In this document: piece by piece, positions 1,599 through 61,233 of the stretch
Layout: every line of letters begins with the position of its first letter
How positions within the stretch are numbered: position 1 is the first letter of the stretch
NCBI GenBank assembly: GCA_016206155.1
Contig: JACQSC010000002.1
Location: 15,473 to 79,472 of the forward strand
Reading direction: 5' to 3'
Origin: Candidatus Uhrbacteria bacterium
GTDB taxonomy: Bacteria > Patescibacteriota > Patescibacteriia > JACQRZ01
Length of the DNA: 64,000 nt
The notes under the pieces: generated by a model
The model's database searches: none
Told to the model about the DNA's origin: nothing
The model's input: the letters and a program-made list of their open reading frames with translations, nothing else
Made by a program: the position numbers and the translations under genes

Positions 1599-2411
1599 AT
1601 GACCATCGGCGTATTCGATTCTGGTATCGGGGGACTCACGGTGTTAAAGCACCTAGTGCGTGTGTTGCCTGAATACGACATGCTCTACCTGGGCGATAAT
1701 GCGCGGGCGCCCTACGGTGACCGATCCGCGGATCGCATATATGAGTTCACTCAGCAAGCGGTTGCTCATCTTTTTGAAGAAGGGTGCGCGCTGGTTATCC
1801 TTGCGTGCAACACCGCCTCATCCGAAGCTCTGCGCCGACTGCAACAAGAGTTCCTGCCGTCACACTTTCCCGACCGGCGGATCTTGGGCATTCTTATACC
1901 CGCGGCGGAACTCATTGAAAAAAAATACGCGCAGAAGAACATTGGCATTATCGGAACGCGCGCAACCGTGCAATCAAACGCGTATCTTCGCGAGATTGAA
2001 AAACGCGGCATGGCGCAAAAAAAAGTTACTCAAATCCCGTGCCCCCTATTAGTCCCATTGATTGAAGAGGGGTGGCAGGATACACCGCCCGGCCGGCAGA
2101 TCCTAAAAAAATACCTCTACCCGCTCAAGCAAAAACAGGTTGATGTTTTGGTCCTTGGCTGCACGCACTACGCGCTCATCAAGGATCGCGTTGCCCGAAT
2201 TATGGGAAAGAAGGTCGCCGTCATAGATACCGGATCCGCGGCGGCCGCATCATTAAAAAAATATCTATCCTGTCATCCCGAAATTGAAAAAACTCTCTCA
2301 AAAAACAGCGCCGTCCGCCTACTCTCAACCGATACGTCCGAGCGCATTTGCAGCCTCGTTCAGCGTTATTGGGGTAGCGCGCTGCCAATAGAACAAATTA
2401 CCCTTGAGTAA
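1599..2411 (+). CDS. murI: glutamate racemase
   Basis: Motifs 'VFDSGIGGLTV', 'LACNTAS' and 'LGCTHY' are the two catalytic-Cys regions of MurI. Confidence 0.9.
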   Translation: MTIGVFDSGIGGLTVLKHLVRVLPEYDMLYLGDNARAPYGDRSADRIYEFTQQAVAHLFEEGCALVILACNTASSEALRRLQQEFLPSHFPDRRILGILIPAAELIEKKYAQKNIGIIGTRATVQSNAYLREIEKRGMAQKKVTQIPCPLLVPLIEEGWQDTPPGRQILKKYLYPLKQKQVDVLVLGCTHYALIKDRVARIMGKKVAVIDTGSAAAASLKKYLSCHPEIEKTLSKNSAVRLLSTDTSERICSLVQRYWGSALPIEQITLE

Positions 2412-2412
2412 T

Positions 2413-2440
2413 ATGTTCGACATCAGATGTCGAACATTTG
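2413..2440. terminator. bidirectional hairpin terminator between convergent murI and trpS
   Basis: Perfect 11 bp inverted repeat 'atgttcgacat cag atgtcgaacat' sitting between two convergent stop codons. Confidence 0.5.
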
Positions 2441-2443
2441 GTG

Positions 2444-3424
2444 TCACTCATAGAGACCGATGCGTCTTTTAATCATGATCATTTTTTTCTCAGCGTGCTT
2501 CTTCGCGCGCGATGCGCCATCGGCGAGAAGGGCGCGCAGATTATTCTCATCCCCTCGATACTGCCCATAGCGTTCCTGAACGGGTGCAAGAAACTCAATT
2601 AGGACTCTTGCAAGGCCATCCTTAAACTCTTTGTACCCTCCTTGGGCATACGCTTTTTCAATATCGGATATCGCTTGGCCAGAGAGCAGATGATAGATGG
2701 TCAAAAGATTGGCGAGCGCCGGTTTCTTCTTTGCGTCAAAGAGGATCTCGCGCCCCGAATCCGTTACGGCACGCTTGATTTTTTTCTTCACTAAGTCAGG
2801 CGTATCAGAAAGAGCGATATATCCATCGACCGATCCTGTCTTCTCCATTTTTTTAGCAGGGTTGTCTAGCGCCATAACGCGCGCGCCATGTTTCATGAGC
2901 ATGCTTTTAGGCACCGTGAACGTCTCGCCAAAACGCCCATTGAAGCGCCGCGCAAGCTCGCGCACAAGTTCAACGTGCTGTTTTTGGTCTTCGCCAACGG
3001 GTACGCCCTCAGTATCATAGAGAAGAATATCGGAAGCCATCAAGACGGGATAGTCAAACAAACCCATATTGATGTTGTCAGGGTTGCTCTTGCTCTTCTC
3101 TTTGAACTGGTGCATTGCTTTTAGCTCGGAAATTTTTGCAATGGTGTTCAGTATCCAGCCTAACTCCGCGTGCGCCGAAACGTGCGATTGCACAAAGAGC
3201 GTACTCTTCTTCGGGTCGAGACCAAGCGCGAGATACCATGCCGCCGCGTCAAGCGTGCGCCTCCGCAATTCGGAAGGGTCAATCGCTACGGTCAACGCGT
3301 GAAGATCGACAACGCAATAGATGCACTCATGCGCATCTTGCAGCGCTATCCATTGAGAGAGAGCGCCGATGTAATTGCCGAGATGCAGATCGCCGGATGG
3401 CTTGATGCCGGAAAAAATTCGCAT
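2444..3424 (-). CDS. trpS: tryptophan--tRNA ligase
   Basis: N-terminal 'GIKPSGDLHLGNYIGA' is the class I HIGH region. Size and overall layout fit TrpS. Confidence 0.9.
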   Translation of the reverse strand: MRIFSGIKPSGDLHLGNYIGALSQWIALQDAHECIYCVVDLHALTVAIDPSELRRRTLDAAAWYLALGLDPKKSTLFVQSHVSAHAELGWILNTIAKISELKAMHQFKEKSKSNPDNINMGLFDYPVLMASDILLYDTEGVPVGEDQKQHVELVRELARRFNGRFGETFTVPKSMLMKHGARVMALDNPAKKMEKTGSVDGYIALSDTPDLVKKKIKRAVTDSGREILFDAKKKPALANLLTIYHLLSGQAISDIEKAYAQGGYKEFKDGLARVLIEFLAPVQERYGQYRGDENNLRALLADGASRAKKHAEKKMIMIKRRIGLYE

Positions 3425-3430
3425 AGGTTG

Positions 3431-3674
3431 GAATTAAGAATCAAGAATTACGAATTAAGAATTACGAATGATTGACTTCGTGCCCTTGATTAACCATTCG
3501 TAATTTTATGAGAACAAACACATGACCTTCTAGCCATGCTCTAAGATCAGTAAACGATTGTATCTTATTCCTGCTTAATTCTTGATTCATAATTCTTAAT
3601 TCTTCATTCTTGAGATCAGTAAACGATTGTATCTTATTCCTGCTTAATTCTTGATTCATAATTCTTAATTCTTC
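3431..3674. mobile_element. MITE-like repeat, copy A', inverted relative to 1440..1597, with an internal ~65 bp tandem duplication (3545..3613 and 3614..3674)
   Basis: 'ccattcgtaattttatgagaacaaacacatgaccttctagccatgctc' is the exact reverse complement of the copy A core. The unit 'gatcagtaaacgattgtatcttattcctgcttaattcttgattcataattcttaattcttc' occurs twice in tandem. Confidence 0.6.
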
Positions 3675-3720
3675 GTACTATACAGAGTAGATAATAATAG
3701 AGCGCCAACGCCTCCTTAGA

Positions 3721-7503: not shown

Positions 7504-7511
7504 ACCCTGAT

Positions 7512-7545
7512 CGTAACTCGTAACTCGTAACTCGTAACTCGTACG
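7512..7545. repeat. tandem heptamer (cgtaact) x4.5, immediately upstream of the substrate-binding-protein start
   Basis: Read directly: 'cgtaactcgtaactcgtaactcgtaactcgtacg'. Confidence 0.9.
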
Positions 7546-10311: not shown

Positions 10312-13131
10312 ATGCAGCAACAATCGATTGTCATTCGCGGATGCCGCGTCAATAATTTAAAAAACGTTTCGCTTGATATTCCCCACAACGCGCTTGTTGT
10401 CTTCACGGGATTGTCGGGATCGGGAAAATCGTCTTTGGCGTTTGATACAATTTATGCCGAGGGACAGCGCCGATTCATGGAGAGCCTCTCAAGTTTTACC
10501 AAGCACTTTCTCGAAAACATCGACAAGCCTGACGTCGAGCGCATCGAGGGGCTTCCCCCCACGATCGCGATTGATCAACGCACCACATCCTCTTCGCCGC
10601 GCTCAACAGTCGGAACCGCTACCGAAATGTACGACGCCCTTCGCCTCCTCTTTGCTCGCGCGGGGACGCCACATTGTCCGCTCTGCGGCATCGAAGTTTC
10701 AGCGCGGACACGCCAACACATCATCCATGACGTGGGACAGCGCATTAAAAAGGGGGGTGCCGCTATCACCATTGCCGCCCCGCTTAAAAAAGGAGAGCAT
10801 ATCGATATCGATCGCATGCTTGAGGAGCTGGAAAAATTATCAATTCACGCCCTCCGTATTGACGGGCAATCATACACGCTTGCCAATCTCATTCGAAATC
10901 CTCGTGCAATGGACGGCGTCCATACGATCGATGTTATTGTCGATCGATTCGAGCATCCCGCCGAGGATGCGCGTGATTCTGCGCGTATTGTGCGATCCGT
11001 TCAGCGTGCGCTCGAATTTGGCGATGGAACACTGTCCATCTGGGAAGAAAAAATAAAACAAGGGACCACTATTACCGAACGGCTTACCTGCACCCGCTGC
11101 GCCTATACCGTTGAGCATCTCGAGCCGCGCCATTTTTCTTTTAATAACCCCACCGGGGCGTGCTCCCCGTGCGCCGGTCTTGGTGTCTTGCACCAGTTCG
11201 ATACCGAGCTCCTGATTCCCAATCAAAAGCTTACTGTTGCGCAAGGTGCAATTCATCCTCTTTCAAAATTTTATGCAAACACCCATGGGCTCATGCAGTC
11301 CATCAATGAGTTGCTTGTGGCGCTTGGCACATCAAACAGCGCCCCTTTGGAGGCATATACAAAAAAACAGCGCGACGGCCTTCTGTATGGCTTGAAAAAA
11401 GAATCATCCTTTGGCGGAGTAATCCCGTATCTGCAGACGAAATACGAGCAAAGCGACTCCGAGTATATTCGCGCTGAGTTGGAGACATATATGCGAATCT
11501 CAACCTGCTCTTCGTGCCATGGCAAGCGTCTAAAAAAAGACGCCCTTGCCGTCACCGTTGCAGGACATTCGATTGATCAAATTGTCGCCATGCCAATCGA
11601 ACATCTTCTGAAGCTTTTTCGCTCCTGTTCACTGAATCAGTCCCAGCGCGCAATTACCGAGCCGATTGTCAACGAAATACTCAACCGCGCACAGGCGCTC
11701 ACCCGCGTAGGTCTTTCCTACCTTGTTCTGGACCGCAGTATGCCGACGCTCTCAGGCGGAGAAGCGCAGCGCGTCAAACTCGCAGCACATGTCAGCACGT
11801 CACTTGTCGGCGTTGTCTACTGTCTGGACGAACCATCTGTGGGACTCCATCCGCGCGACACCGACCATCTTATTGCAACACTAAAAGAACTGCAGGGACT
11901 CGGTAACACCGTTATTGTTGTTGAACATGACAAACAGATTATTCTCGCCGCAGACAGCATCGTCGACATTGGACCTGGCGCCGGAAAGCAAGGGGGCACG
12001 ATTGTTGCCCAAGGATCCGCGCAGGACATCGTGAAGACAAAAGCCTCGCTGACCGGACGATATCTTTCTGGCGCAAAAGCAATCGCGCTTCCTCGCAAAA
12101 AGCGCATTCGCACAGACGCGTGTATCGATCTTGTCGGTGTCCGTGAGCATAACTTGAAAAATATCTCCGTCCGCATACCAACCGGAGCGCTGGTTGCAAT
12201 TACCGGCGTGTCTGGATCGGGAAAATCAAGCCTGGTGATCGACGTGTTAAGCAAAGCCCTCATGAAGCGATTCTACCGCAGCAAGGATATTCCGGGCGCG
12301 CATGACGACATCCGCGGCCTGGAATATATTGACAAGGCAATCGTTATCGATCAGGCGCCGATTGGGCGGACGCCGCGCAGCAATCCCATCACCTATACGA
12401 ATATCTTCACCCCCGTCCGCGAGCTATTCACCAATCTTCCCGAATCAAAAATCAGAGGGTTTACACCCGGCCATTTTAGTTTTAATGTAAAGGGGGGGCG
12501 GTGTGAAACGTGCCAGGGCGAAGGAATGATGCGTATCGATATGCGCTTCCTTTCGGATGTCTATGTCGAATGTGGCGACTGCGGAGGAAGGCGCTACACG
12601 CCCGATGCCCTTGAGGTTCATTTTGAGGGACTCTCCATTGCCGACGTGCTTGACTTGACTGTCAGCGAAGCGTGCGAGGTTTTCAAAAAGATTTCCCCGA
12701 TCTATGATAAGCTAAAGGTGCTTGCCGATGTTGGTCTTGGGTACATTCGTCTTGGGCAACCGGCTCCCACATTATCCGGCGGTGAGGCACAGCGCATCAA
12801 ACTTGCCGCAGAGCTTTCTCGGCGATCAACTGGACGAACCCTGACCATCCTCGATGAACCAACCACCGGACTCCACTTTGAAGATATCCAACAACTTCTC
12901 GGGGTGCTCGATGCGCTTGTCGCAAAAGGGAATACCGTCCTGATGATCGAACACAACCTTGACGTAATCCGTTGCGCGGATTGGATCATTGATTTGGGAC
13001 CTGAGGGTGGAGAAGCGGGCGGATATGTCGTCGCGCAAGGAAGCCCTTCTGATGTTGCCAACAATCCGCAGAGTATCACCGGCCGCTATTTGAAAAAGGC
13101 GTTGATTGAGCAAGGAGCTATGAAGAATTAA
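10312..13131 (+). CDS. uvrA: excinuclease ABC subunit A
   Basis: 939 aa with two ABC ATPase modules ('[14 protein letters not shown]', '[11 protein letters not shown]'), zinc-finger Cys clusters and 'LSGGEAQR' signatures. Confidence 0.95.
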
Positions 13132-13204
13132 GAATCAAGAATTAAGAATTAAGCAAAGGGATATTTGTATTATTCGTAATTCTTGATTCGTAATTCTTAA
13201 TTCC
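13124..13204. repeat. heptamer-array hairpin (short MITE-like element) between uvrA and leuS
   Basis: 'gaattaagaatcaagaattaagaattaag' and, 22 nt later, its inverse 'cgtaattcttgattcgtaattcttaattc'. Same heptamer family as the 1440 and 3431 elements. Confidence 0.7.
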
Positions 13205-13223
13205 TCTCCGGAGGAAGGAGTGC

Positions 13224-20059: not shown

Positions 20060-20269
20060 AAAAAATTTCAAATTTATAATTTCAGATTTATCAAAATACA
20101 AGGTGTCAATTCGAGGAAATGGGGTCTGGCTCAATTTCCTGAAAGGAATTTGTGCCTGACCTCATTTCATTTCTATCTGAATCGAAGAGAAGAAACAGTC
20201 TTGTTCGTTTTCTTGCGATGCTTTTTCTGCGCTATTTTTTTCTTTTTGTACATATTAATTTTTATTTAA

Positions 20270-20351: not shown

Positions 20352-21350
20352 TTAAAATTTTTCAAATACTACTTTCTTTCGCGGGAGAAATAACTCACTT
20401 TTCATAGATGAATACATATATGTATAGAGACGCCTTGAATCATGAATAGAAAAACGTAAGTTAAAACCATCTCCTTCGGATATGCTTCCGCCCGCTACTA
20501 CTCTGTATTTTTTAAGGACCAAAAAGATTTGTTCGAGAATCTTTTTCCCGCCTGACGTGAATCCGGAAGCAAGTACTCGATTTTTCTTTCTACGTCCTTT
20601 CCTAAAATACTCATAGATAACGACATGACCACATCCATCAAAATAGCCTCGTAAAAAATGGCAGAAAAATTTATGGGGGACGGCAGGAAGCTGAACAATC
20701 AGGCTTTTGCGAACGATCATACCGAATGCGCTGAGATTCTTAAAAAGTTTTTTACTACCAATTTGCAAACGGTAACAGTCTTTCGCCCTTCTTGTTCTGT
20801 CGCGTTCGTGCGGTTTCACGCCGATCGAGTGATTGGAACCAAGGGCATCTCTAATTTTCTCAATGATTGCCCGATCGCATGAGGTAAATTCAATATATTT
20901 GCTTCCTCGCGGATTGACTGTCAAATTTCCGTCTGCGACAAAAAACCCGAGTACATACGCCATCTCCTCTGACCATGTTTCAAAGAACGATTGATTTACC
21001 TTCCATGGAAATTCCCTTTTAACCTTCGGCTTCGCGCGCGGCCCCTTACGTGGCCCAGTATTAAGGAGATTCAAGTTCGTAAACCGAGTACACGACTGGC
21101 TTGGAATATGAAGCTTATGAAACCATCTGGTTACGGTGCCTCGCGGCAGACCAACTTTTTTCCCAATCTCACTGTGTTTGAGATTTTCATCCCAGTGCCA
21201 GTAATAAAAAAGTTGATGAACTGGCGTTCTCCACTTTTCCTCAATGGCGGTCAGTCGAGGTGAGTGCACGATTTGCTGCATGGGAATCCCAAAAAAGATA
21301 GATACATTATACCACCTTTTTTTCTTTCCGCAATACCCATACCAATCCAA
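20352..21350 (-). CDS. free-standing LAGLIDADG homing endonuclease with two motifs and an N-terminal HTH region
   Basis: Motif 1 'YVLGFFVADGNL' and motif 2 'FLRGYFDGCGHV'. The gene lies immediately upstream of tRNA-Asp. Confidence 0.7.
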   Translation of the reverse strand: MDWYGYCGKKKRWYNVSIFFGIPMQQIVHSPRLTAIEEKWRTPVHQLFYYWHWDENLKHSEIGKKVGLPRGTVTRWFHKLHIPSQSCTRFTNLNLLNTGPRKGPRAKPKVKREFPWKVNQSFFETWSEEMAYVLGFFVADGNLTVNPRGSKYIEFTSCDRAIIEKIRDALGSNHSIGVKPHERDRTRRAKDCYRLQIGSKKLFKNLSAFGMIVRKSLIVQLPAVPHKFFCHFLRGYFDGCGHVVIYEYFRKGRRKKNRVLASGFTSGGKKILEQIFLVLKKYRVVAGGSISEGDGFNLRFSIHDSRRLYTYMYSSMKSELFLPRKKVVFEKF

Positions 21351-22098
21351 GGGTGCCGACGATCATAAACCCAAGGGAAATCCATTGGGGGGCACGAAGA
21401 CCGAACGCTAAGGGAACGATATCAATCCTTAAAAACTCAATACCAAAACGTCCAAGAGAATAAAGGATGAGATAGAGAAAAAAAACCGTACCATTTGTCA
21501 TCCCGGCGGAGGCCGGGATCCAGCCACCCCCCCTTCTCCACACGAGCCATCCCAAAAAAAGAAAGAGCAAAACATCAAAAATAGACTCGTACAAAAATGT
21601 CGGATGAAATGTCGCAAATGATTCATATCCCGGCAACCGCTTCTCCGTATCGATGGTTATTCCCCATGGCACATCAGTCGGAAGACCATACGCCTCCTGG
21701 TTGACATAATTTCCCCACCGCCCGATAGCCTGCCCCAACGCAACACCGGGCGCGAGCACATCAAGAAGTGAAAGAAATGATATATGCGTTTTCCGGCAAT
21801 ACCCATACACGCCAAGTATCCCTCCAAGTAGCCCTCCATGCCAGACCCATCCACCATTCCAGACTGCAATATTTTCTTGGGGGTGAGTGCCAAAATAATC
21901 AAGGTGGTACACAACAAACAATACACGTGCCCCAATCACCGCGGGGATAAGCGCCCATAAAAGTACGCTGTCAATATGGTCAGTGCGAATAGTCGCAGAT
22001 CTTCGCGCAAAAAATAACGCCGCGCAATACGCGACAAGAAACCCCAGTGAAATGAGAAGTCCGTATCCTGAAATGCCAACGATACGCACCCCCTCCAT
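21307..22098 (-). CDS. lgt: prolipoprotein diacylglyceryl transferase
   Basis: 'GRWGNYVNQEAYG' signature and multiple TM helices. Carries a 29 bp palindromic insertion (see the repeat at 21497). Confidence 0.85.
   Translation of the reverse strand: MEGVRIVGISGYGLLISLGFLVAYCAALFFARRSATIRTDHIDSVLLWALIPAVIGARVLFVVYHLDYFGTHPQENIAVWNGGWVWHGGLLGGILGVYGYCRKTHISFLSLLDVLAPGVALGQAIGRWGNYVNQEAYGLPTDVPWGITIDTEKRLPGYESFATFHPTFLYESIFDVLLFLFLGWLVWRRGGGWIPASAGMTNGTVFFLYLILYSLGRFGIEFLRIDIVPLAFGLRAPQWISLGFMIVGTLGLVWVLRKEKKVV
21497..21525. repeat. 29 bp GC-rich palindromic repeat 'gtcatcccggcggaggccgggatccagcc' inserted in-frame in lgt
   Basis: Same element at 42914..42942 inside rfbD and a longer copy at 25142..25206. 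Encodes 'WIPASAGMT' in Lgt. Confidence 0.8.
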
Positions 22099-24975: not shown

Positions 24976-25141
24976 GTAATTACATTTATAATGACCTCAA
25001 TCATCATAAATGTAACATTTATGATTGCTTATGTCAATAGAGATGTCATAATAATGCCCCATTTATCCACATTGACAATAAAAATGGTGTCTGGTTTAAT
25101 TTCTGAGGAAATTATACCTGCCACCTGACAGCATTATTGCT

Positions 25142-25206
25142 GTCATCCCGGTCCGACTGTGCCAAAGCGCTTCGTCGCGACGGCGAGCGGAGGCCGGGAT
25201 CCAGAC
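25142..25206. repeat. long intergenic copy of the palindromic repeat (gtcatcccgg...ccgggatccagac) with a 36 bp internal insert
   Basis: The ends match the 29 bp elements inside lgt and rfbD. The internal segment 'tccgactgtgccaaagcgcttcgtcgcgacggcgagcg' is absent from the short copies. Confidence 0.75.
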
Positions 25207-33236: not shown

Positions 33237-33271
33237 AGGAACGTCAACAGTGCCGAATCAGGAATTATGAA

Positions 33272-34291
33272 TTATGAATAAGGGGTTTTCTGATTCCTGA
33301 TTCCGAGTTCTTCGCAGCGCTGTTCAAATCTCTCACTGATCTCTTGCCGCCGATCCGCGATGTGAAACTTCAGCACCGTGTCGGAAACGACAACTCCCGT
33401 CCCGACATTGGCGCGGTTGCGGATGGCGATGGGAAGAATGCGAAGCTGCAAAGATCGAAGTATTCGCTCAATCGCTCCGCCAAAACACCGGCTGAATATC
33501 TCCCCCGCATGCTTTATCCCATGCATGATAGGCGAAAGCGTGATACGACGCCGCGGAATCGGTTCACACGGAAATACGTTTGGAAGAATGTCGGTAATCC
33601 ACGCGTTTTTCAAAAAGAATTGATCGTACACACCATCATCATAAAGCGGAACGCACCACGCGACCCAGGATGCAAGATACACGTCAGGATCCCATCCATC
33701 CAGCTGGAGCGACGAGAGATCAAGAGCGCAATCTGAAATGAAAAAACTCAAGCAAAACGTATCGCGCTCATGGCCTTTTCTCGGACGGAGATTCAGTATA
33801 TGGGCAAGACTGGTACAAAAAAATCGTACCGTCCACACATGGCGTGCGCTGACAACAATAAAAAGATCAATATCGCTTTCATCGCGCGCGACATTCAGGC
33901 CCAGTGTGTTGCATACGCAAACCATGCGCACAAACGGTATGTGCGCAAGCAGAGAAACGAACCGCTTTGCCCGTATGTATTTTCGATACGAATAGATCAT
34001 ACGCCCTTGCCGACGCGCGCGCAAAAGATCGCGCCCAACAAGATAAAAGAGTCCCTCCCCCGATGAAATACGCGCGGCGAGAAACGGAGAAGATGCAAGA
34101 CAGTCGCGAATCATGAGTACGGTATAGGGCTCGCCCCTCTCTGTTGAGATAAGAAATTTCCAAATCTCGAAATCGGTTAGAGGGTATTCAAAGATATCAA
34201 AAAAAATAAGGGTTCGAAGTATTGCGCATTCAAAATGTGAGGGTGTTTCCGTTGACATAAGGCCTGTCATATTGTATCCTAATAAGCGCAT
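33272..34291 (-). CDS. hypothetical protein with a nucleotidyltransferase-like motif
   Basis: 'LGLNVARDESDIDLFIVV' resembles the pol-beta superfamily NTase motif. Otherwise unassigned. Confidence 0.3.
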   Translation of the reverse strand: MRLLGYNMTGLMSTETPSHFECAILRTLIFFDIFEYPLTDFEIWKFLISTERGEPYTVLMIRDCLASSPFLAARISSGEGLFYLVGRDLLRARRQGRMIYSYRKYIRAKRFVSLLAHIPFVRMVCVCNTLGLNVARDESDIDLFIVVSARHVWTVRFFCTSLAHILNLRPRKGHERDTFCLSFFISDCALDLSSLQLDGWDPDVYLASWVAWCVPLYDDGVYDQFFLKNAWITDILPNVFPCEPIPRRRITLSPIMHGIKHAGEIFSRCFGGAIERILRSLQLRILPIAIRNRANVGTGVVVSDTVLKFHIADRRQEISERFEQRCEELGIRNQKTPYS

Positions 34292-37177: not shown

Positions 37178-37615
37178 TCAATTATTTGAAATTTTTGTAC
37201 TATCCTCAGTATACCTTTTCCGAGAACAACATGAAATAACAACGAACACACAACCAACTAAAATCCAGACATCAGCAAGATTAAAAACAGTGAGGCCCGG
37301 TAGTGCGATCCAATCGATCACTCCGCCATAGATATGAGTGTCAAAAAAATTCGACGCCGCACCCGCAACCATGAACGTTGCACCGCTCGCCACGAATGTC
37401 ATGCGCGCCGTCCGAGATACTTCATGCATGAACCATCCTATAAGCAGCAAAACAAAAATAAGAAAAAGGAGGAACGAGAACTCAGCGTTTTGAATAAAAA
37501 ATAACGTCTTCCGATTAAGAAGGACGTTATCTGGGTATACTAATAGGACGATTGTCTTTGTGAGACGATCAATCGCAAAAAGGAAGCACAGAAGAAGACC
37601 GTACGTTCGCCTCAT
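37178..37615 (-). CDS. lspA: lipoprotein signal peptidase II
   Basis: 'FAIDRLTK', 'FFDTHIYGGVIDWI' and 'FNLADVWI' are LspA signatures. Start placed at MRRTYG, overlapping the dksA-like stop. Confidence 0.7.
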   Translation of the reverse strand: MRRTYGLLLCFLFAIDRLTKTIVLLVYPDNVLLNRKTLFFIQNAEFSFLLFLIFVLLLIGWFMHEVSRTARMTFVASGATFMVAGAASNFFDTHIYGGVIDWIALPGLTVFNLADVWILVGCVFVVISCCSRKRYTEDSTKISNN

Positions 37616-37983
37616 TTGCCAGCCTTCTCTTGGCATGCAATACAGAGAACAGCCTGAGGCCGCACGGCAAGACGCTGTTCGCCAATGTCCATACCGCATG
37701 ATTTGCACGTTCCCCATGTGCCTTCGTCAAGACGCGCAAGCGCCTCAACAACCTCGCGAAGTTCTGATTCAAAAGTTGCTTCAAGGCCCAATGAATCACT
37801 ATATGCCGCGACTTCTGCGGCATTCTCGTCTTCTTTGTCACCATAATCCTCCCATGTCGTCTGGAAGTCGGTGTCATCCTTGCCGCTCGGCTTGCCGATT
37901 TTTGCAAGCTCGGCTTCAAGCCGCTCTTTCTCTAAAAACAATTTTTTCTCTATATCTGATAAAAATTGTGTTGAAAAGGCCAT
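37612..37983 (-). CDS. DksA/TraR family C4 zinc-finger protein
   Basis: Coiled-coil N-terminus and the C-terminal 'CKSCGMDIGEQRLAVRPQAVLCIACQ' four-Cys finger. Confidence 0.7.
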   Translation of the reverse strand: MAFSTQFLSDIEKKLFLEKERLEAELAKIGKPSGKDDTDFQTTWEDYGDKEDENAAEVAAYSDSLGLEATFESELREVVEALARLDEGTWGTCKSCGMDIGEQRLAVRPQAVLCIACQEKAGK

Positions 37984-41413: not shown

Positions 41414-41583
41414 GAGAGTGGTGAAAAATATCACGTATAAGTTTCTTCCGGCTCATTTCCAGCCAATGTCGCCCCAAAAATGCGCTGAACTCGTCGCCCG
41501 GCCACGGCCGGGCTTCTCATTCATCATCATTTTTGGAACGAAATTGTCATGGAACTGACCGGGAATCTATTTTTCACCACTCT
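41414..41583. mobile_element. 170 bp MITE bounded by perfect 17 bp terminal inverted repeats (gagagtggtgaaaaata / tatttttcaccactctc)
   Basis: TIRs at 41414..41430 and 41567..41583. Internal GC hairpin 'gcccggccacggccgggc'. A partial second copy lies at 58478..58550. Confidence 0.75.
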
Positions 41584-42043: not shown

Positions 42044-43000
42044 TCAATGGGTCTGCTGTACCAGAAACGAAATGCACTCGCTCAAACTTGCGTCCCAGTC
42101 GTGGATCGCCACGCCGAACGTATGTTGAATTTTTTTTGTTGAAAGGACGCTATATGCCGGACGTGTGACCTTGGTTGGATATTCCGATGCGGGAATGGGC
42201 TTGATCTCGCATGACAACCCTGCCAAGTCACGGATCTTCTGCGCGAACTCAAACCAGGTGACCTCCCCGTCGTTTGCGTAATGGTATATACCGAAAGGAA
42301 ATGGGGTCTGGCTCTGTGGGGAAAACGGTGTCTGGTTCGTTTTCGCTTGCAAAAATGCACCTGACACCATTTTCCATGTGCCTGACTCCATTTTCGTGAT
42401 CATCGCAATGAGCGCGCCGGCAAGATCGCGGGCGTAGGTCGGACTCCCATACTGGTCTGCGACAACGGGTAATGACTCCTGCTCCTCGCAAAGACGCACT
42501 ATCGTTTTAACAAAATTACTGCCGTACGACGAATAGAGCCAAGAGGTGCGGACAATAAAACTTTTAGGGCATACTTCTTGAACCGCCAACTCCCCTTCAT
42601 ATTTTGATCGTGCGTATGCTCCCAGCGGATGCGGCTCATCATCTTCGGTGTATGGCACGGTTTTTTTCCCATCGAACACAAAGTCGGTCGAGATATGGAA
42701 AAGAATCGTGCTATTCTTTGCGCATGAGCGTGCGATGTTCTCAGCGCCCAGTACATTGACTGCGTGCGCAAGCGATTGTTCATCCTCCGCTTTTTCAACG
42801 TTCGTGTATGCGGCAGTGTTGATGCAATAATCTGGTTTGTGTTCATCAAAAAATTTCAGCACGGCATCCGCGTCAGTAATATCAAGCTCGTCGCGATCAA
42901 CAAAAGTAAAAATGTCATCCCGGCGCAGGCCGGGATCCAGACAAATTTTTTTTAGCTCTGACCCGAGCTGTCCATTTGCGCCGGTGACAAGGAGTCTCAT
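42044..43000 (-). CDS. rfbD: dTDP-4-dehydrorhamnose reductase
   Basis: 'MRLLVTGANGQLGSEL' Rossmann start and RmlD layout. Contains the in-frame palindromic insertion encoding 'LDPGLRRDDI'. Confidence 0.85.
   Translation of the reverse strand: MRLLVTGANGQLGSELKKICLDPGLRRDDIFTFVDRDELDITDADAVLKFFDEHKPDYCINTAAYTNVEKAEDEQSLAHAVNVLGAENIARSCAKNSTILFHISTDFVFDGKKTVPYTEDDEPHPLGAYARSKYEGELAVQEVCPKSFIVRTSWLYSSYGSNFVKTIVRLCEEQESLPVVADQYGSPTYARDLAGALIAMITKMESGTWKMVSGAFLQAKTNQTPFSPQSQTPFPFGIYHYANDGEVTWFEFAQKIRDLAGLSCEIKPIPASEYPTKVTRPAYSVLSTKKIQHTFGVAIHDWDASLSECISFLVQQTH
42914..42942. repeat. 29 bp GC-rich palindromic repeat 'gtcatcccggcgcaggccgggatccagac' inserted in-frame in rfbD
   Basis: Same family as 21497..21525 and 25142..25206. 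Confidence 0.8.
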
Positions 43001-43534: not shown

Positions 43535-43816
43535 CTACACCAGTGCTCCGAATCGTTTATATATTTTGTCACGGGGCCCAATTGCTCGAATAGTCAACGT
43601 TCTCATTTCTGTCTCGACTGTGTAAATGACCCGTGCGTCCCCTATTCGTAATTTAAAATATCCGCGCAATACATTACTTAATGGAAGCGGGAGTGTTCTA
43701 TCGAAATTTTCCTCGAGCCATTCAAATTTTTCAATAATGCGATCCTGTATTCGCTCGTCAAATTTTTTGAGATCATCTTCTGCCCCATCAATGAAAACAA
43801 TACTCCATAAAGGCAT
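43535..43816 (-). CDS. type II toxin, RelE/ParE family
   Basis: 'LRGYFKLRIGDARVIYTVETEMRTLTIRAIGPR' is typical of ParE/RelE. Confidence 0.7.
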   Translation of the reverse strand: MPLWSIVFIDGAEDDLKKFDERIQDRIIEKFEWLEENFDRTLPLPLSNVLRGYFKLRIGDARVIYTVETEMRTLTIRAIGPRDKIYKRFGALV

Positions 43817-43817
43817 A

Positions 43818-44030
43818 CTATGCTGTCCTTGCTTTTAGTCGCCTTTTTACTTCTCTGAGAGAAATGGTTTTTTGGGGCTTCTTTGCAAGACGTTTTTGAA
43901 CCCATGGCTGCAGTTCACAAAAATATTCCTGGTCCATCAAAATTTCGCGCATCGTACTTGCAACGGTTTCCGCAACGGTCACTTGAATTTTTTTTGTCAG
44001 AGTCGCAGGATCTAATTGAAGCGAGGGCAT
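43818..44030 (-). CDS. putative antitoxin, upstream partner of the RelE/ParE toxin
   Basis: Small ORF ending 2 nt before the toxin start on the same strand. Start placed at MPSLQL. No family motif recognised. Confidence 0.4.
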   Translation of the reverse strand: MPSLQLDPATLTKKIQVTVAETVASTMREILMDQEYFCELQPWVQKRLAKKPQKTISLREVKRRLKARTA

Positions 44031-44080
44031 AAAAATGCATGATAAGTATACAATTACTCTATCGAATTGTTGTAAAAATG

Positions 44081-45166
44081 TCAAAACGATGTACAAGACG
44101 CATACATAGGTAACACTTTTGATAGTTCAAGAGGTGGTTTGTAGTTCAGCGATTGATGAGGGCGTCTGAAGTTGTACTCAATCAGCCATTCAGTCAGATC
44201 TCTGTTAAAGATCAATGGGTCAGGATCGAACCCCTTCATCTCAATGAACTCTTCCTGCAGAGTTCTGTTGAATCGTTCATTGTTCGGATTGTCTTTTGGC
44301 GTGTGTACTCTGCTGTAGTATTGTTCAATGCCGAGTTCCAGGCACGCGGCCTTAAAGTATTTCTCAAACTCTGTTCCATTGTCGTGGCCGACTCGTGGAA
44401 TCTGTCCGTCAAGGAGGTAGTGGAGGCGCAGTAGAAAATCCTCACCATTCTTTGAGCTCTTGGACGTGTACATTCGCGCAAAGGCCACCTTGCCATACTT
44501 GTCGACAGCCGTGAAGATATATCGTTTCAATCCATGCCAGTATATCACGATCGTATCAAGGCAGATAATGTAGCCGGCTCTTTTCTGCCAGGGCAGGATG
44601 TTCTTCACAAGATCAATGGTCTTTTTCTTTTTCTGTGCTTTTCTTCGTTTTGCTTGTATTCTCTTGTTTTTTGAGGGTTTGTAGTAGAGCTTGAAGTCTG
44701 TAATAACGCACTGGATTTTCCATGAAGAAATTGTCTCTCCATAGGTTTGCTCATAGATTTCTTTGAGCTTCATTTTGCCATAGCGCATGTTGGACTTTCT
44801 GGGGGCTATGATACGTTCTAAAACGTCTGGGGCGATTGTACGGCCTCGTTTTTTCCTTGGAGAGCGTGATTTGTCCTCAAGGAGGTGGAGAGTGTAGAGA
44901 TTTCGCTCGTCAAAGAGTTTGAACCATTTGTAGAAGGTTTTTCCCGGGATGCCAAAGTGCCGGCAGGCTAATGAGGCGTTTCCCTCGTGTTCGTAGTACC
45001 AGATGATCCAGTCAAGGCGCTGTTTTGCTTTCTTTGAAACCTTGAGGATGTCTGCGACGCGTCTCCAGCGCTCATATTTGTCCAAAAGAGTATGGCGGTA
45101 GTAAGGGAAGTGCTTGAAAAGATCTTCAAGGCGCAATTTCTCTGGGGTATGGTATGCTGTTTGCAT
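44081..45166 (-). CDS. DDE transposase with an integrase (rve) core and an N-terminal HTH
   Basis: 'TAVDKYGKVAFARMYTSKSSKNG...GHDNGTEFEKY...YSRVHTPKDNPNNERFNRTLQEEF' is a DDE rve core. Single ORF of about 360 aa with an HTH N-terminus, as in IS481 members. Confidence 0.8.
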   Translation of the reverse strand: MQTAYHTPEKLRLEDLFKHFPYYRHTLLDKYERWRRVADILKVSKKAKQRLDWIIWYYEHEGNASLACRHFGIPGKTFYKWFKLFDERNLYTLHLLEDKSRSPRKKRGRTIAPDVLERIIAPRKSNMRYGKMKLKEIYEQTYGETISSWKIQCVITDFKLYYKPSKNKRIQAKRRKAQKKKKTIDLVKNILPWQKRAGYIICLDTIVIYWHGLKRYIFTAVDKYGKVAFARMYTSKSSKNGEDFLLRLHYLLDGQIPRVGHDNGTEFEKYFKAACLELGIEQYYSRVHTPKDNPNNERFNRTLQEEFIEMKGFDPDPLIFNRDLTEWLIEYNFRRPHQSLNYKPPLELSKVLPMYASCTSF

Positions 45167-51899: not shown

Positions 51900-54452
51900 T
51901 CAGATCATTTTTTGCTGTCCGCTGTCTGGTTTTTTGATGTTCAAATGCTCATACGCACGATCGGTTGCGATACGTCCGCGGGGAGTGCGATTAAGAAATC
52001 CGATTTGCAATAAAAACGGTTCACAGACCTCTTCCACGGTTTCCATCTCCTCGGCAATGGATGCGGCGATCGTGTTTAGTCCTACGGGGCCGCCGTTAAA
52101 TTTTTCGATGATTGTGTGAAGAATTTTTCGATCAACTGCATCAAGCCCCTGCTCATCAACGCCAAGCTTGTGCAATGCCTCTGATGTTTGTGTATGACCA
52201 ATAGTGCCATCACCTTTGATCTGCGCGTAATCGCGTACGCGCTTAAGCAAGCGATTTGCAATACGCGGTGTTGAGCGGGAGCGGCGAGCAATCTCTTCTG
52301 CCGCTGACTGATCTATCGCTACGCCTAAAATTCGTGCTGAACGCTCAACGATCTGCATAATCTCTTCCGAGGTATAAAAATCAAGATGAAAAAGCGTGCC
52401 AAATCGATCGCGGAGCGGACCCGTTAGCAAACTCATGCGCGTGGTTGCACCCACAAGCGTAAACTTAGGGAGGTCAAGACGAATGGTGCGCGCGGACGGC
52501 CCTTTCCCGAGTACGATATCAAGCGCATAATCTTCCATCGCTGGATACAGCGCTTCGGAAATGCTTTTTGACAAACGGTGAATCTCATCGATAAAAAGAA
52601 TGTCACCATCAGAGAGGTTGGTCAGAATCGCCGCCAAGTCACCAACTCGCTCAAGCGCTGAGCCGGATGTCACGCGCACCTGCACCCCGCGCTCATTGGC
52701 GATGACGTGTGAAAGTGTCGTGTTGTGATTCACGAACGAGTTTGCGACGAATGAATGTGTTTTGGGTACACAAAAATCATAAACCTCTGCCTTCTGATGT
52801 TCAATGGAAGAGATACTATCCCAGTAGTATTGTGGATCCATCAGCGCCTTTAACGTTGAAAATTCTTGATTCATTTTAGCTGAATCTGGAAGAAGGGCAA
52901 GATATTTTTCTATCGTAGTGCGAGAAAAAGATCTATCTTCATTTCTTGCATGTTGGAATCTATGATGCAGATTACGAGGATGGGGACGAGTCGCGGTAAG
53001 AATTTTGTAGAGGAGCGACGAGGCGTACGGAACGACCTCTGAACGAGAAAATCCACGTTTACTGCTTTTTAATATTGAAAGTCGCTCTTGCTTCCTTCTC
53101 AGTCGAAAACCTATCGTTTTATAAAAAATTTCTGCATTTTTTCCACCCACAAACAACTGCCAATATCGTTCACCCTTTACTATTTTTTTCTCACGGTGCG
53201 CGATGATGCCAAAATTTGCAAGAAGAATTTGAGTTTGCCGTGCAAGAACGGTGGATTTTGTATAGAAATCAACATAGCCATCACACCGAGCTGAACCATC
53301 GGCGTCAAATAAACCCTGAAAAAAACCACATACAACGCGCGCGGGGCTTTTCAATATTGCTGACGGGATACTTTTTTCTGCCGCTCGTGCCGGATGTATG
53401 CCAAGGGAAATCAAAAGATGTCCAAAATTTTGACTAAATCGCATCCGCGGAGCTCTATTTTCATAAACCCCAAGACTGGGAGTCCAGCCAAATTGTTCCC
53501 TGATAATCCTGCTTATTTCTTGCTGGATGTCTTTTTCGCTTACGGTAATATCGCACGCTGGATAATTCATCTGAAATTCAAAATGACCATCGCCGATAAG
53601 AAGGCCAATCACATATGCGAGATCCTCATTGACAACATGTGGTTTTTTCCATCTTAATGCGCTTATTTCTAATGATGGGGCTTCATACAGTGTACTCTTA
53701 ATCTTTCTTCCATCACTGAGAGATAAATTCAATCTGTGGGCGGTAATGGGAATGGTAATATTTCTTCTCACTGCTCCAGCATATGCATATTCAAGCTCAT
53801 GAGCTGTTGGAGCTCGTTCAAGCGCCTGAACAAGAGCGGCACGCAACGAGACTGTGCGATGTTCTGTATGCTCTTTTCTCTGTGCGGGACTATAATACAG
53901 CGGCTCAAAGTCAATAGTTTGCGACGGTCCCCAAAGATGAGTACCCCGCATGATCGCAACATAGTCAGTTTGAGAAATTGCAGCGAGATTTTTCCACTGC
54001 GGTCCATTGGGGGTTGCGATGAGGACTGGATGATTAACCGTGCCTTCAATCTGAAATCCCGATCTGGTTGTGATCCGAATGGTTTGCCGGTATCCCCCGT
54101 AATAGATATGCGATGTATTTTCGAGACCCTCGCGACCATAAATATTTAAAGAAAGTGGTGCGTACGAATCCGAATTAAGGGGACGAAGAATAAAATCCTG
54201 AATGTGAAAGATGCCCCGATCGCTTAAGACAAGGCTATCCCCAGTAATACATTTCCCCAAGCCAGGCGCGCCGGAGAGAAGAACGTGCTCAAGCGGCTCA
54301 TTGCGCTGTTTTGATGCTTCGATAAAAATTTCGAGTGATTCTCGAATCTTTATCTGGCCGATGTATTCACGCAGAGTCCGCGGACGCAAGGTGGCATCGT
54401 CGCTCGACTCATCGGTCTTTGCTTGTTGTGCTGAAAATTCCTCGTCGCTCAT
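51900..54452 (-). CDS. ruvB: Holliday junction helicase RuvB interrupted by a 510 aa intein
   Basis: Extein: 'SGAPGLGK | [10 protein letters not shown]...[10 protein letters not shown]...' is the RuvB Walker A/B and sensor region. The 67 aa N-extein plus 273 aa C-extein give 340 aa, a normal RuvB size. Confidence 0.9.
52722..54251 (-). other. intein with a LAGLIDADG homing-endonuclease domain, inserted in the RuvB P-loop between GLGK and TT
   Basis: Starts '[10 protein letters not shown]' (Cys1) and ends 'SFVNHN' before Thr+1. Endonuclease motifs '[14 protein letters not shown]' and '[15 protein letters not shown]'. Confidence 0.85.
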
Positions 54453-58458: not shown

Positions 58459-58477
58459 TGGATTGCCATTTCTCTTT

Positions 58478-58550
58478 CAGCGCATTTTTGTGGCGAAATT
58501 GGGCAGAAATGAGCCGGAATAAATACATAATGGTATTTTTCACCACTCTC
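58478..58550. mobile_element. partial copy (one end) of the 41414..41583 MITE, opposite orientation
   Basis: 'tatttttcaccactctc' TIR at 58534..58550. The adjacent 'ttccggctcatttctgcccaatttcgccacaaaaatgcgc' matches the MITE interior in reverse complement. Confidence 0.7.
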
Positions 58551-58594
58551 AAGATGGTTGGCAATTGCGGGAGGGGTAATGTACAATACTGCGC

Positions 58595-59752: not shown

Positions 59753-59791
59753 CAGAGCCATATTTTTCGATATACTTTCTTTCATCATTAT

Positions 59792-59863
59792 GGCCCTATC
59801 GTCTAGTGGTTAGGACGACAGGTTTTCATCCTGTAAACCGGAGTTCGATTCTCCGTGGGGCTA
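59792..59863 (+). tRNA. tRNA-Glu (anticodon TTC)
   Basis: D-loop 'TCGTCTAGTGGTTAGGACG', anticodon stem ACAGG/CCTGT, loop TTTTCAT, T-loop GGAGTTCGATTCTCC. Confidence 0.8.
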
Positions 59864-61233
59864 AATAATGTATACTTTGCGAACTCCCGACTCTCACCAA
59901 GAGTCGGGAGTTCGCTTTTGAGGGGGCAATCGGTTTTTCGGTCGGACAAAACACCAACAGAATTTTTATCGTCGGGGGCAATCGTTAAATCCTTGTGTAA
60001 CGAAAAGGAAATAATAATTTGGTCGGGGGCATACTCAATTTTTTCCAAACATTTTTTCGCAAAGAAATTTCTCTCGATGCCTTTGAGCGAGCGGAGGGTG
60101 ATGGCGAAAAATTTCAAGGTCGCGGCGATACTCTCAGCCGAAATCTGGGAAATCGAAGAGTGCTCGCCTGAGAGTTCGATTCCCTGAGGGTGCCCCGTCG
60201 AACCGTCATTATTCAAGCGAAAAACGAGATTTTCTAGATACGTCTTATCTACAGTCAGACGCTCGAGATCCTCCAGACAAAAATTTTCAAGGCGGTCGGC
60301 AGAAACTTGTTTTACCGAACACGCACCCCAATTCTGCTTTGATATCCTTGTACAACGATAGTAGTAATAGCGCCTCATTTTGCCTTCATGCCACTTGTTC
60401 GTAAAACAAGCTGTCATCGTCGAATTGCAATTTTTGCATTTAACCAGACCGCCGAACAGAAAGTTTTTGTAGAGCTTGAATTTTTTCGTCTTGGACTTGT
60501 GTATTTTTTGAGCAAGTTCAAAGAGTTCAAGAGATATGAGCGGTTCGTGGATGCCGTAGTAATACACCCCTCTATGAAATACTTTCCCGGCATAGACGCG
60601 GTTTCTAAGAATTTTGCTGACATACGTACTCGCGAAATGGTTTCCGCGCTTGTTTCGTGTGTCATTTTCTCTTAACGCCCTATGGACGGCGGCCACAGAC
60701 TGCGTTTCCAGGTATATATCAAACATTAGCTTTATGGCATCACGCTCTTTTGGATGCGGGACCAGCTTCTTGTCTTGACGAATGTATCCATACGGCGTAG
60801 CCCCGCCATTACACATTCCTTTCTTCGCGCGTTCAAGTGCCTTGTCTCGCGTGCGTTCGCTCGTGAGTTCGCGTTCAAATTGCGAGAATGTGAGCATGAT
60901 ATTCCTCAACAGTCTGCCGGCGGGAGTAGACGTATCGAATCGTTCGGTGATGGAGATAAAGTCAAGATTTGCGCGCTCAAAAAATTCTATGAGCTGGTAA
61001 AAATCCTTCGGCGAACGTGTGAGCCGATCAATCTTGTACACGAGGACAACATCGATTTTTTCTTTCTTTGCGTCAGCCAACAATTGCGTGAGGGCGGGCC
61101 GATCAACAGTTGCTCCTGAGTACCCTGCGTCGGAATAGACCTTGCACACCTGCCAATCAGATTGACTCTCAATGAATGAACGGATCTTTAGTTCTTGCGC
61201 TTCACAGGACGAAAACTCCTTCTCTGCCTGCAA
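59803..61233 (-). CDS. large serine recombinase (resolvase/invertase catalytic domain, recombinase domain and zinc ribbon)
   Basis: N-terminal 'EFSSCEAQ...VYKIDRLTRS', recombinase-domain 'GGATPYGYIRQDKKLV', zinc-ribbon Cys pairs 'CKNCNS...YYYRC'. The 3' end of the ORF overlaps tRNA-Glu on the opposite strand. Confidence 0.8.
   Translation of the reverse strand: MQAEKEFSSCEAQELKIRSFIESQSDWQVCKVYSDAGYSGATVDRPALTQLLADAKKEKIDVVLVYKIDRLTRSPKDFYQLIEFFERANLDFISITERFDTSTPAGRLLRNIMLTFSQFERELTSERTRDKALERAKKGMCNGGATPYGYIRQDKKLVPHPKERDAIKLMFDIYLETQSVAAVHRALRENDTRNKRGNHFASTYVSKILRNRVYAGKVFHRGVYYYGIHEPLISLELFELAQKIHKSKTKKFKLYKNFLFGGLVKCKNCNSTMTACFTNKWHEGKMRRYYYYRCTRISKQNWGACSVKQVSADRLENFCLEDLERLTVDKTYLENLVFRLNNDGSTGHPQGIELSGEHSSISQISAESIAATLKFFAITLRSLKGIERNFFAKKCLEKIEYAPDQIIISFSLHKDLTIAPDDKNSVGVLSDRKTDCPLKSELPTLGESREFAKYTLFSPTENRTPVYRMKTCRPNH
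59879..59919 (+). terminator. rho-independent terminator after tRNA-Glu
   Basis: 16 bp perfect stem 'gcgaactcccgactct cacca agagtcgggagttcgc' followed by 'ttttg'. Confidence 0.8.

Follow-up and report, generated by a model that had tools for sequence, protein, structure and literature searches.

A 28-nucleotide palindromic repeat, probably of the CGTC-1 family, lies in frame in lgt and rmlD of a Candidatus Uhrbacteria bacterium

A 64,000-nucleotide stretch of a Candidatus Uhrbacteria genome (contig JACQSC010000002.1, positions 15,473 to 79,472; hereafter the window) carries a 28-nt palindromic sequence inside lgt and again inside rmlD (rfbD). We assign this sequence with good confidence to the CGTC-tagged repetitive extragenic palindromes (REPs), family CGTC-1, residing in gene loops that appear to tolerate it. 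The phenomenon itself has been described before; an element of a known kind is found here in a new host lineage and in new host genes. That a palindromic repeat lies in frame in both genes had been proposed in the initial annotation of this DNA and is borne out, as a 26-nt pattern has exactly two sites in the window, one in lgt and one in rmlD, against none in 100 dinucleotide shuffles.

Comparison of the window's repeat families gives the unit common to both gene copies as TGTCATCCCGGCG[G/C]AGGCCGGGATCCAG, 28 nt in length. A TGTC tag precedes a perfect 8-bp stem (ATCCCGGC/GCCGGGAT) that closes a loop of 4 nt, and the unit ends in a CCAG tail. Together with 6-7 flanking nt at either end (41 nt in all), the hairpin folds at about -16 to -18 kcal/mol. 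The lgt copy reads TGTCATCCCGGCGGAGGCCGGGATCCAG, and the rmlD copy differs from it by one loop base (GCAG instead of GGAG). The site first described was the right one, with coordinates one base too far to the right and a length of 29 rather than 28 nt, and the accompanying two-site account holds for lgt and rmlD but missed a third, intergenic copy (Table 1). The latter is the lgt copy with 36 nt inserted in the hairpin, and deleting the insert gives the lgt copy exactly. The three copies are spaced 3.6 kb and 17.7 kb apart, and no degenerate copies beyond them were found in the window. GTCATYCC half-sites number nine against 3.8 expected, all of them without a partner half. An Rfam gathering scan of the whole window returned five tRNAs only, with no match at the element copies, and a hairpin survey of the window found no other GC-rich intragenic hairpin family except a second palindrome in rmlD, described below.

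Both genes are translated through the antisense strand of the element, each in a frame of its own and neither meeting a stop. In RmlD the codons CTG GAT CCC GGC CTG CGC CGG GAT GAC yield LDPGLRRDD, and in Lgt the codons C TGG ATC CCG GCC TCC GCC GGG ATG ACA yield WIPASAGMT, so that WIPASAGMTN spans Lgt residues 193-202 and LDPGLRRDDI spans RmlD residues 21-30. These are the two open antisense frames of the element (LDPGLRRDD and WIPA.AGMT), the third being unusable because it contains TGA. The element was originally said to add about ten codons without breaking the frame. The frame is indeed intact, but 28 nt is no multiple of three and corresponds to 9.3 codons, and, compared with element-free orthologues, Lgt is longer by a net +5 to +10 aa and RmlD by only +1 to +7 aa, so an addition of about ten codons is too simple a description. 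The invariant residues of the Lgt family are all kept in the window Lgt, and the window encodes a signal peptidase II, which makes a working lipoprotein pathway plausible in this organism. That lgt is essential, as first stated, is carried over from E. coli and would be an assumption for this lineage.

In AlphaFold models, both inserts are predicted to sit in surface loops modelled with low confidence. The Lgt model has a mean pLDDT of 86.5, falling to 63 in block 191-200, and helices 167-189 and 204-223 are joined by a coil at residues 190-203 (GGGWIPASAGMTNG). Its match to E. coli Lgt (5azb) has a TMq of 0.73, sequence alignment places the insert between E. coli residues ~219 and ~226, and the REP loop is equivalent to the E. 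coli TM5-TM6 loop. According to the Lgt crystal-structure paper, the TM4-TM5 head domain and loop L6-7 lie in the periplasm, which is also the side that the active site faces, and from this we infer that the TM5-TM6 loop is cytoplasmic and far from catalysis. In RmlD (mean pLDDT 88; 70 in the block with the insert), the insert is coil at residues 21-30, in the alpha1-beta2 loop that leads from helix 11-20 of the Rossmann fold to strand 31-34.

The family assignment follows the definition of CGTC-1 given by Di Nocera, De Gregorio & Rocco (2013, BMC Genomics 14:522; PMC3733652), as it stands in the sections of that survey drawn on here: a CGTC tag that is often TGTC, an 8-bp stem starting with AT, a 4-nt loop and a CCA tail, with TGTC or CCTC accepted as tag variants. 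All three window copies carry TGTC and end in CCAG, the stem has eight perfect pairs with A-T in the first and second position, and the loop is GGAG in lgt, GCAG in rmlD and enlarged in the intergenic copy; loop-size variation is noted in those sections only for Bradyrhizobium CGTC-1. The same sections state that CGTC-1 corresponds to Neisseria dRS3 and to the Rickettsia palindromic element RPE-6 of R. conorii, and CGTC-4 to RPE-4. The ATGAC motif, typical of RPE-4/6/7 and nearly absent from RPE-1/2/3/5 (Matsutani et al. 2013, PMC3767692), is found in the window element as GGGATGACA. The initial annotation had likened the window element to Rickettsia palindromic elements and taken it for an analogous process in a different lineage. 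The behaviour is of that kind, with a dispersed palindromic repeat lying in frame in loops of housekeeping proteins, and the likeness stands. Analogy, on the other hand, is probably too weak a word: the window element fits CGTC-1, which the 2013 paper equates with RPE-6, and the likeness would therefore be one of family membership. The implied novelty was overstated, as the 2013 survey already describes this family together with its occurrence in several phyla and inside genes; the sections cited above cover CGTC REPs in five phyla, mostly Alphaproteobacteria, report REPs wholly inside ORFs and translated in several species, and record different REPs at about the same recB site in two Xanthomonas species.

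The element is widespread. When species-representative genomes were scanned with the 24-nt core pattern TCATCCCGGCNNNNGCCGGGATCC, at least 120 loci were found; the matches listed are mostly from Alpha-, Beta- and Gammaproteobacteria, and also come from Microgenomates, Falkowbacteria, contigs labelled Bathyarchaeota and Halobellus, and a few Actinobacteria. In 141 copies among the matches listed, conservation ends at the 28-nt unit (flank consensus cG-TCATCCC...GGATCC-A), the tag is mostly CGTC, the preceding bases being mostly CG, and the base after CC is A in nearly all, CC itself being set by the pattern scanned for. At least 120 metagenome contigs with a GC content of 38-71% carry the exact TGTC 28-mer, which lies deep and in frame inside the Pfam-confirmed ORFs of at least five other enzymes (Table 1). 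On two contigs of the candidate phyla radiation (CPR), L023 and L057, the copies are intergenic, 3' of genes. A gammaproteobacterial metagenome-assembled genome (L073, 2674-3729) has head-to-tail CGTC-1 arrays with a 36-nt period, comprising five plus-strand copies in two runs, and three further CGTC-1 copies lie on the opposite strand of the same 8-kb locus. Such grouping of CGTC elements is rare according to the 2013 survey.

Orthologues give an indication of the age of the two insertions. The RmlD of a second Uhrbacteria genome, GCA_016209345.1, is 82% identical to that of the window and contains the element between the same two junctions; 21 additional nt, a AGGGGAGAAGT spacer and a CGGGATGACA half-copy, come after it. 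Its lgt contains the element too, in the same orientation, and three copies lie in 14 kb of a relative. The other close RmlD orthologues listed (61-69% identity) are all without the element. Among Lgt orthologues, P0002, P0004, P0006, P0007, P0010 and P0012 carry it in the same loop, in one orientation throughout, and in the five for which the DNA was read (all of these except P0007) the same L-K/T-R codons come immediately before it. These carriers use the other frame (LDPG.RRDD / DPR.RGDD). In P0003 the form is long, with a 31-nt hairpin nested inside it, and P0017 (GGIPSHLQSAGFLGKLGMT) is probably a long form in the frame of the window. Short, element-free loops are seen in P0011, P0015, P0016, P0018 and P0019, and P0125, too, is an element-free orthologue. 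The window Lgt groups with P0002 and P0003 in a rough neighbour-joining tree with the loop masked; compared with these two, the window lgt has 8 nt more in a G-run upstream of the element and 2 nt fewer downstream of it, and the reading frame is thereby shifted across the element. Neither a target-site duplication nor a common target motif was seen at the lgt and rmlD junctions examined.

The expectation that orthologues would lack the insert is thus correct for most of them and incorrect for GCA_016209345.1, in both genes, and for several Lgt proteins. The same peptide encoded by non-palindromic DNA, which would have spoken against an inserted repeat, was not found, and the orthologues show the opposite, with the palindromic DNA shared and the peptide changed. 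The initial annotation also spoke of in-frame spread. With both inserts present in the relative and the Lgt loop occupied by the element in several orthologues, its presence at lgt and rmlD is better read as an old inherited state or a hot spot than as evidence of current spread. The insertions appear old and would be ancestral to a clade in the case of lgt and to a sub-clade in the case of rmlD.

Some variants recur. Both the rmlD of L001 and the lgt of L124 combine the full element with an 11-nt purine-rich spacer (AGGGGAGAAGT and AGAGGGAGGGC, respectively) and a duplicated right half (CGGGATGACA and GGGGATGAC), which suggests that element, spacer and half-copy form a recurrent composite variant. 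The nested 31-nt insert of P0003 (L248, 4001-4795) has a 7-bp hairpin of its own and a GTAG-like tag at its start. The nested long forms, with inserts of 36 nt in the window and 31 nt in P0003, indicate that the hairpins themselves may be insertion targets.

The hairpin is far better conserved than the genes around it. Between the window lgt and its orthologues only 31-39% of four-fold sites and 38-47% of third positions are identical, yet the element is identical at 27 of 28 positions to those of P0004 and P0006 (P ~7e-9 at p=0.45), although the frame differs. The comparison of rmlD with the relative gives 41% identity at four-fold sites and again 27/28 for the REP. One stem pair is swapped from G-C to C-G in both arms in P0010, P0012 and the relative's intergenic copy, and all eight stem pairs are intact in each of the six distinct element sequences (100% pairing). 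On these comparisons, protein-level selection cannot account for the conservation of the element, because the frames differ and the synonymous positions are frozen too, and simple neutral decay of the hairpin is argued against. The hairpin would rather be kept alike at the nucleic-acid level, by selection, gene conversion or re-insertion at a hot spot. The label 'selfish', applied to the element at the outset, may go too far: the hairpin DNA is conserved far above synonymous sites.

A model can be suggested in which CGTC-1 REP copies land in lgt, in rmlD and in other genes elsewhere, and in which intragenic copies would persist only where a tolerant surface loop, a stop-free orientation and frame, and a total indel that keeps the frame coincide. 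The hairpins would then be kept alike by a process acting on the nucleic acid, most likely concerted evolution or re-insertion among dispersed copies, with selection on the hairpin itself as the alternative. Local turnover of the element is visible as the frame switch, the half-copy duplication and the nested inserts.

Several observations weigh against the CGTC-1 assignment and this model. The window copies are singletons, with no dimers among the three copies in 64 kb, whereas CGTC-1 copies are mostly head-to-head dimers according to the 2013 survey sections (PMC3733652); the copy number itself, three, applies to the 64-kb window. The equivalence with RPE-6 and dRS3 is a statement of that paper, and the comparison was by description only. 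The taxonomic proportions among the core-pattern matches listed are only indicative. At lgt and rmlD, one ancestral insertion would look the same as several insertions into a hot-spot loop; the tree is rough, and the carriers are interspersed with element-free orthologues. Finally, Pfam found no Y1/HUH or IS110-type enzyme among ~46 window ORFs, and no mobilising enzyme for the element was identified there.

The strongest competing account, which we consider possible but doubtful, is that the copies are independent, recent insertions into a hot-spot loop by CGTC REPs that are still mobile, the window lgt copy being a separate event in another frame. Near-identical DNA in host genes that diverged long ago would fit such a history, as would the differences between the three closest Lgt relatives (short, nested long and frame-shifted forms), the two stem subfamilies found at the same site in different lineages and together in one genome, and the nested inserts in hairpin loops, which suggest the hairpin as a target. 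In rickettsial orthologues, inserts likewise occur at the same locus, sometimes from another subgroup, and for RPE-4/6/7 the choice between hot spot and common origin has been left open (PMC3767692). Recent insertion is harder to reconcile with the same upstream junction and constant orientation in five Lgt orthologues, with rmlD junctions that are both identical in two genomes, and with the lack of a target-site duplication or shared target motif at the junctions; no dedicated transposase is described for CGTC REPs in the 2013 survey sections (PMC3733652).

We think it unlikely that selection maintains the hairpin for a function in cis, for example as an mRNA or DNA binding or processing site (for an RNase, a gyrase-type or another protein) or as an attenuator. 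The 27/28 identity despite saturated synonymous divergence and two frames, and the invariant or compensated stems with variable loop bases, are what such a role would predict, and REPs in general are thought to work as RNA or DNA elements (PMC3733652, in the sections cited). The rmlD copy alone is terminator-like on the sense strand, where the minus-strand segment 42917-42936, ~65 nt into the gene, is followed by GACATTTTTA, a T run. A role as an intrinsic terminator was nevertheless rejected, as the lgt copy does not resemble a terminator and no T tract follows the rmlD copy of the relative. Several orthologues are intact without the element, the host genes elsewhere are unrelated, and gene conversion or recent re-insertion equally predicts that dispersed copies are alike. 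A broader proposition, that the hairpin is actively maintained in Uhrbacteria coding loops either through a cis-acting role or by a still-active CGTC-REP machinery that targets hairpins, seems to us just as improbable; a machinery repeatedly targeting existing hairpins would explain the nested long forms, the half-copies and the variants at one orthologous site.

Very little speaks for a miniature inverted-repeat transposon (MITE) or an insertion-sequence end moved by a DDE transposase such as the rve enzyme near rmlD. That enzyme is encoded only 1.1 kb from rmlD and a longer, 66-nt form of the element exists, but conservation stops at the 28-nt unit in the 141 copies listed, from many phyla, and there are therefore no longer terminal repeats; the long form is the short form with a loop insert and not a longer element. 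A MITE would have a unit of 50-400 bp with terminal inverted repeats and a target-site duplication, and here the unit is 28 nt and the lgt and rmlD junctions are without duplication. That the segment is a native loop that arose by chance or convergence, or a lone CRISPR-like repeat (the GC-rich 28-nt hairpin has what we take to be a superficial likeness to type I-E CRISPR repeats), can be dismissed, as zero matches are expected by chance, the same 28-mer recurs in hundreds of contexts with no relation to one another, the segment is missing from most orthologues, and the window has no spacer arrays and no regular repeats, only three isolated copies kilobases apart.

Table 1. Features discussed in the text, by window position or, for copies in other genomes, by contig.
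Feature	Position or contig	Strand	Remarks
Probable CGTC-1-type REP copy in lgt	21496..21523	+	TGTC, loop GGAG, tail CCAG; minus-strand W193-T201 (WIPASAGMT)
Second probable CGTC-1-type REP copy, in rmlD	42913..42940	+	Loop GCAG; minus-strand L21-D29 (LDPGLRRDD)
Third copy, intergenic long form	25141..25206	+	TGTCATCCCGG + 36-nt nested insert + CGGAGGCCGGGATCCAG
lgt, 263 aa, intact	21307..22098	-	PF01790, E 1.4e-66
rmlD/rfbD, 318 aa from ATG	42044..43000	-	PF04321, E 5.8e-98
Second, unrelated in-frame palindromic insert in rmlD	42284..42388	-	Residues 205-239
Signal peptidase II gene	37178-37717		With Lgt, plausible lipoprotein pathway
rve-type (DDE) transposase	44081-45166		Pfam; 1.1 kb from rmlD
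Large serine recombinase	59803-61233		Pfam
Alanine racemase	L145		28-mer in frame; second KRCQTPF..KGSDPF-type palindrome too
GT4/GT1 glycosyltransferase	L150		28-mer at domain linker, SSRRRPGSS
Adenine phosphoribosyltransferase (APRT)	L203		28-mer read as VIPAKAGIQ
Met-tRNA formyltransferase (Fmt)	L181		28-mer in frame
2-oxoacid dehydrogenase E2	L204		28-mer in linker

The second palindrome in rmlD is a member of a different repeat family, which is also found at 20095-20160 and 25060-25125. It is ~70 nt long (GGAAAATGGTGTCAGG...CCAGACACCGTTTTCC, -33.5 kcal/mol), encodes the peptide WKMVSGAFLQAKTNQTPFSPQSQTPF, and is modelled as disordered at residues 213-232 (pLDDT <50). In the relative it is identical at 88 of 96 positions, compared with ~41% at synonymous sites. 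The alanine racemase of L145 has an insert similar to this palindrome (KRCQTPF..KGSDPF) in addition to its CGTC REP.

The window holds further repeats and mobile features. AT-rich heptamer repeats (GAATTAA/GAATCAA/GAATTAC) at 1427-1603, 3421-3680, 7506-7540, 13108-13206 and 33244-33286 constitute a separate intergenic family and form long inverted pairs around or between genes; arms of 79 and 57 nt with 91% complementarity flank 1599-3424. An intergenic segment of ~135 nt (41442-41576) has an inverted partial copy 17 kb away (58476-58555) and an 83%-identical copy in the related genome, between pyruvate kinase and lgt (L002, 2828-2962), and on account of this different position in the relative it is probably another small mobile element. 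RuvB contains an intein with a LAGLIDADG domain (51900-54452), and immediately after lgt, sharing 44 nt with its 3' end, comes a free-standing LAGLIDADG ORF (20352-21350) that is syntenic in the related genome (L002, 3874-4809). The rve-family (DDE) transposase and a RelE/ParE-like pair adjoin the rml genes (43535-45166), and the large serine recombinase abuts a tRNA-Glu (59791-61233), with a perfect 16-bp hairpin at 59879-59915. These two regions may be borders of integrated elements.

If the assignment is right, the CGTC-tagged REPs, including RPE-6 and dRS3, extend to Candidatus Uhrbacteria (Patescibacteria), a lineage not named in the sections of the 2013 survey cited here, and lgt and rmlD join the proteins known to carry such elements. 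The remaining interest lies in a 28-nt hairpin that is 96% identical at orthologous sites where synonymous sites are saturated, even across a frame switch. The question of whether RPE-4/6/7 and CGTC REPs reflect a relic, a hot spot, gene conversion or a function becomes testable with metagenome population data, and, should active maintenance prove true, the missing factor that moves or binds CGTC REPs could be sought in CPR genomes, with their high gene density. There is also a warning for annotation: segments such as LDPGLRRDD, WIPA.AGMT, VIPAKAGIQ and SSRRRPGS in alignments would be translated REP and not protein motifs. A full-text search returned no relevant literature on the encoded peptides, e.g. 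IPAFAGMT, RFRGND or IPAKAGI, and none was found linking RPE with Patescibacteria.

Among known systems, the GTAG REPs and REPINs, mobilised by RAYT transposases (IS200/IS605-like Y1), resemble the window element in being short, GC-rich, tagged hairpins that may be intragenic, but their tag is GTAG as opposed to (C/T)GTC and no RAYT is found in the window or known to be associated with CGTC REPs. Identity with them was rejected on the TGTC tag and the absence of Y1_Tnp by Pfam in ~46 window ORFs, and Coxiella QMITE was rejected as a different, GTAG-type element. RPE-1 of Rickettsia conorii (Ogata et al. 2000), the classic example of selfish DNA in protein-coding genes, shows the same behaviour, a palindromic repeat tolerated in frame at the protein surface, but is much longer and of different sequence and origin, and the parallel is one of analogy only. 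Neisseria dRS3 elements are intergenic, flank NIME arrays and have the stem ATTCCC..GGGAAT. They have the same CGTC-1 architecture as the window element, although the Neisseria elements are mostly found in large clusters and those described here are isolated and intragenic (PMC3733652, in the sections cited). With CGTC-1 as defined in that survey, the window element shares tag, stem, loop, tail, dispersal over several phyla and translated intragenic copies; no host from the Uhrbacteria or Patescibacteria (CPR) is named in those sections, and the dimers described there contrast with the singletons seen here, one of which, like one orthologue, has a nested hairpin insert. The lineage and host genes of RPE-6, RPE-4 and RPE-7 (Ogata et al. 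2002) differ from those of the window, and RPE inserts in R. japonica genes measure 68-192 bp compared with the single 28-nt unit found here. Nevertheless, these elements, like the inserts in lgt and rmlD, lie in frame in solvent-exposed regions of housekeeping proteins, contain ATGAC and recur at the same locus in orthologues (PMC3767692).

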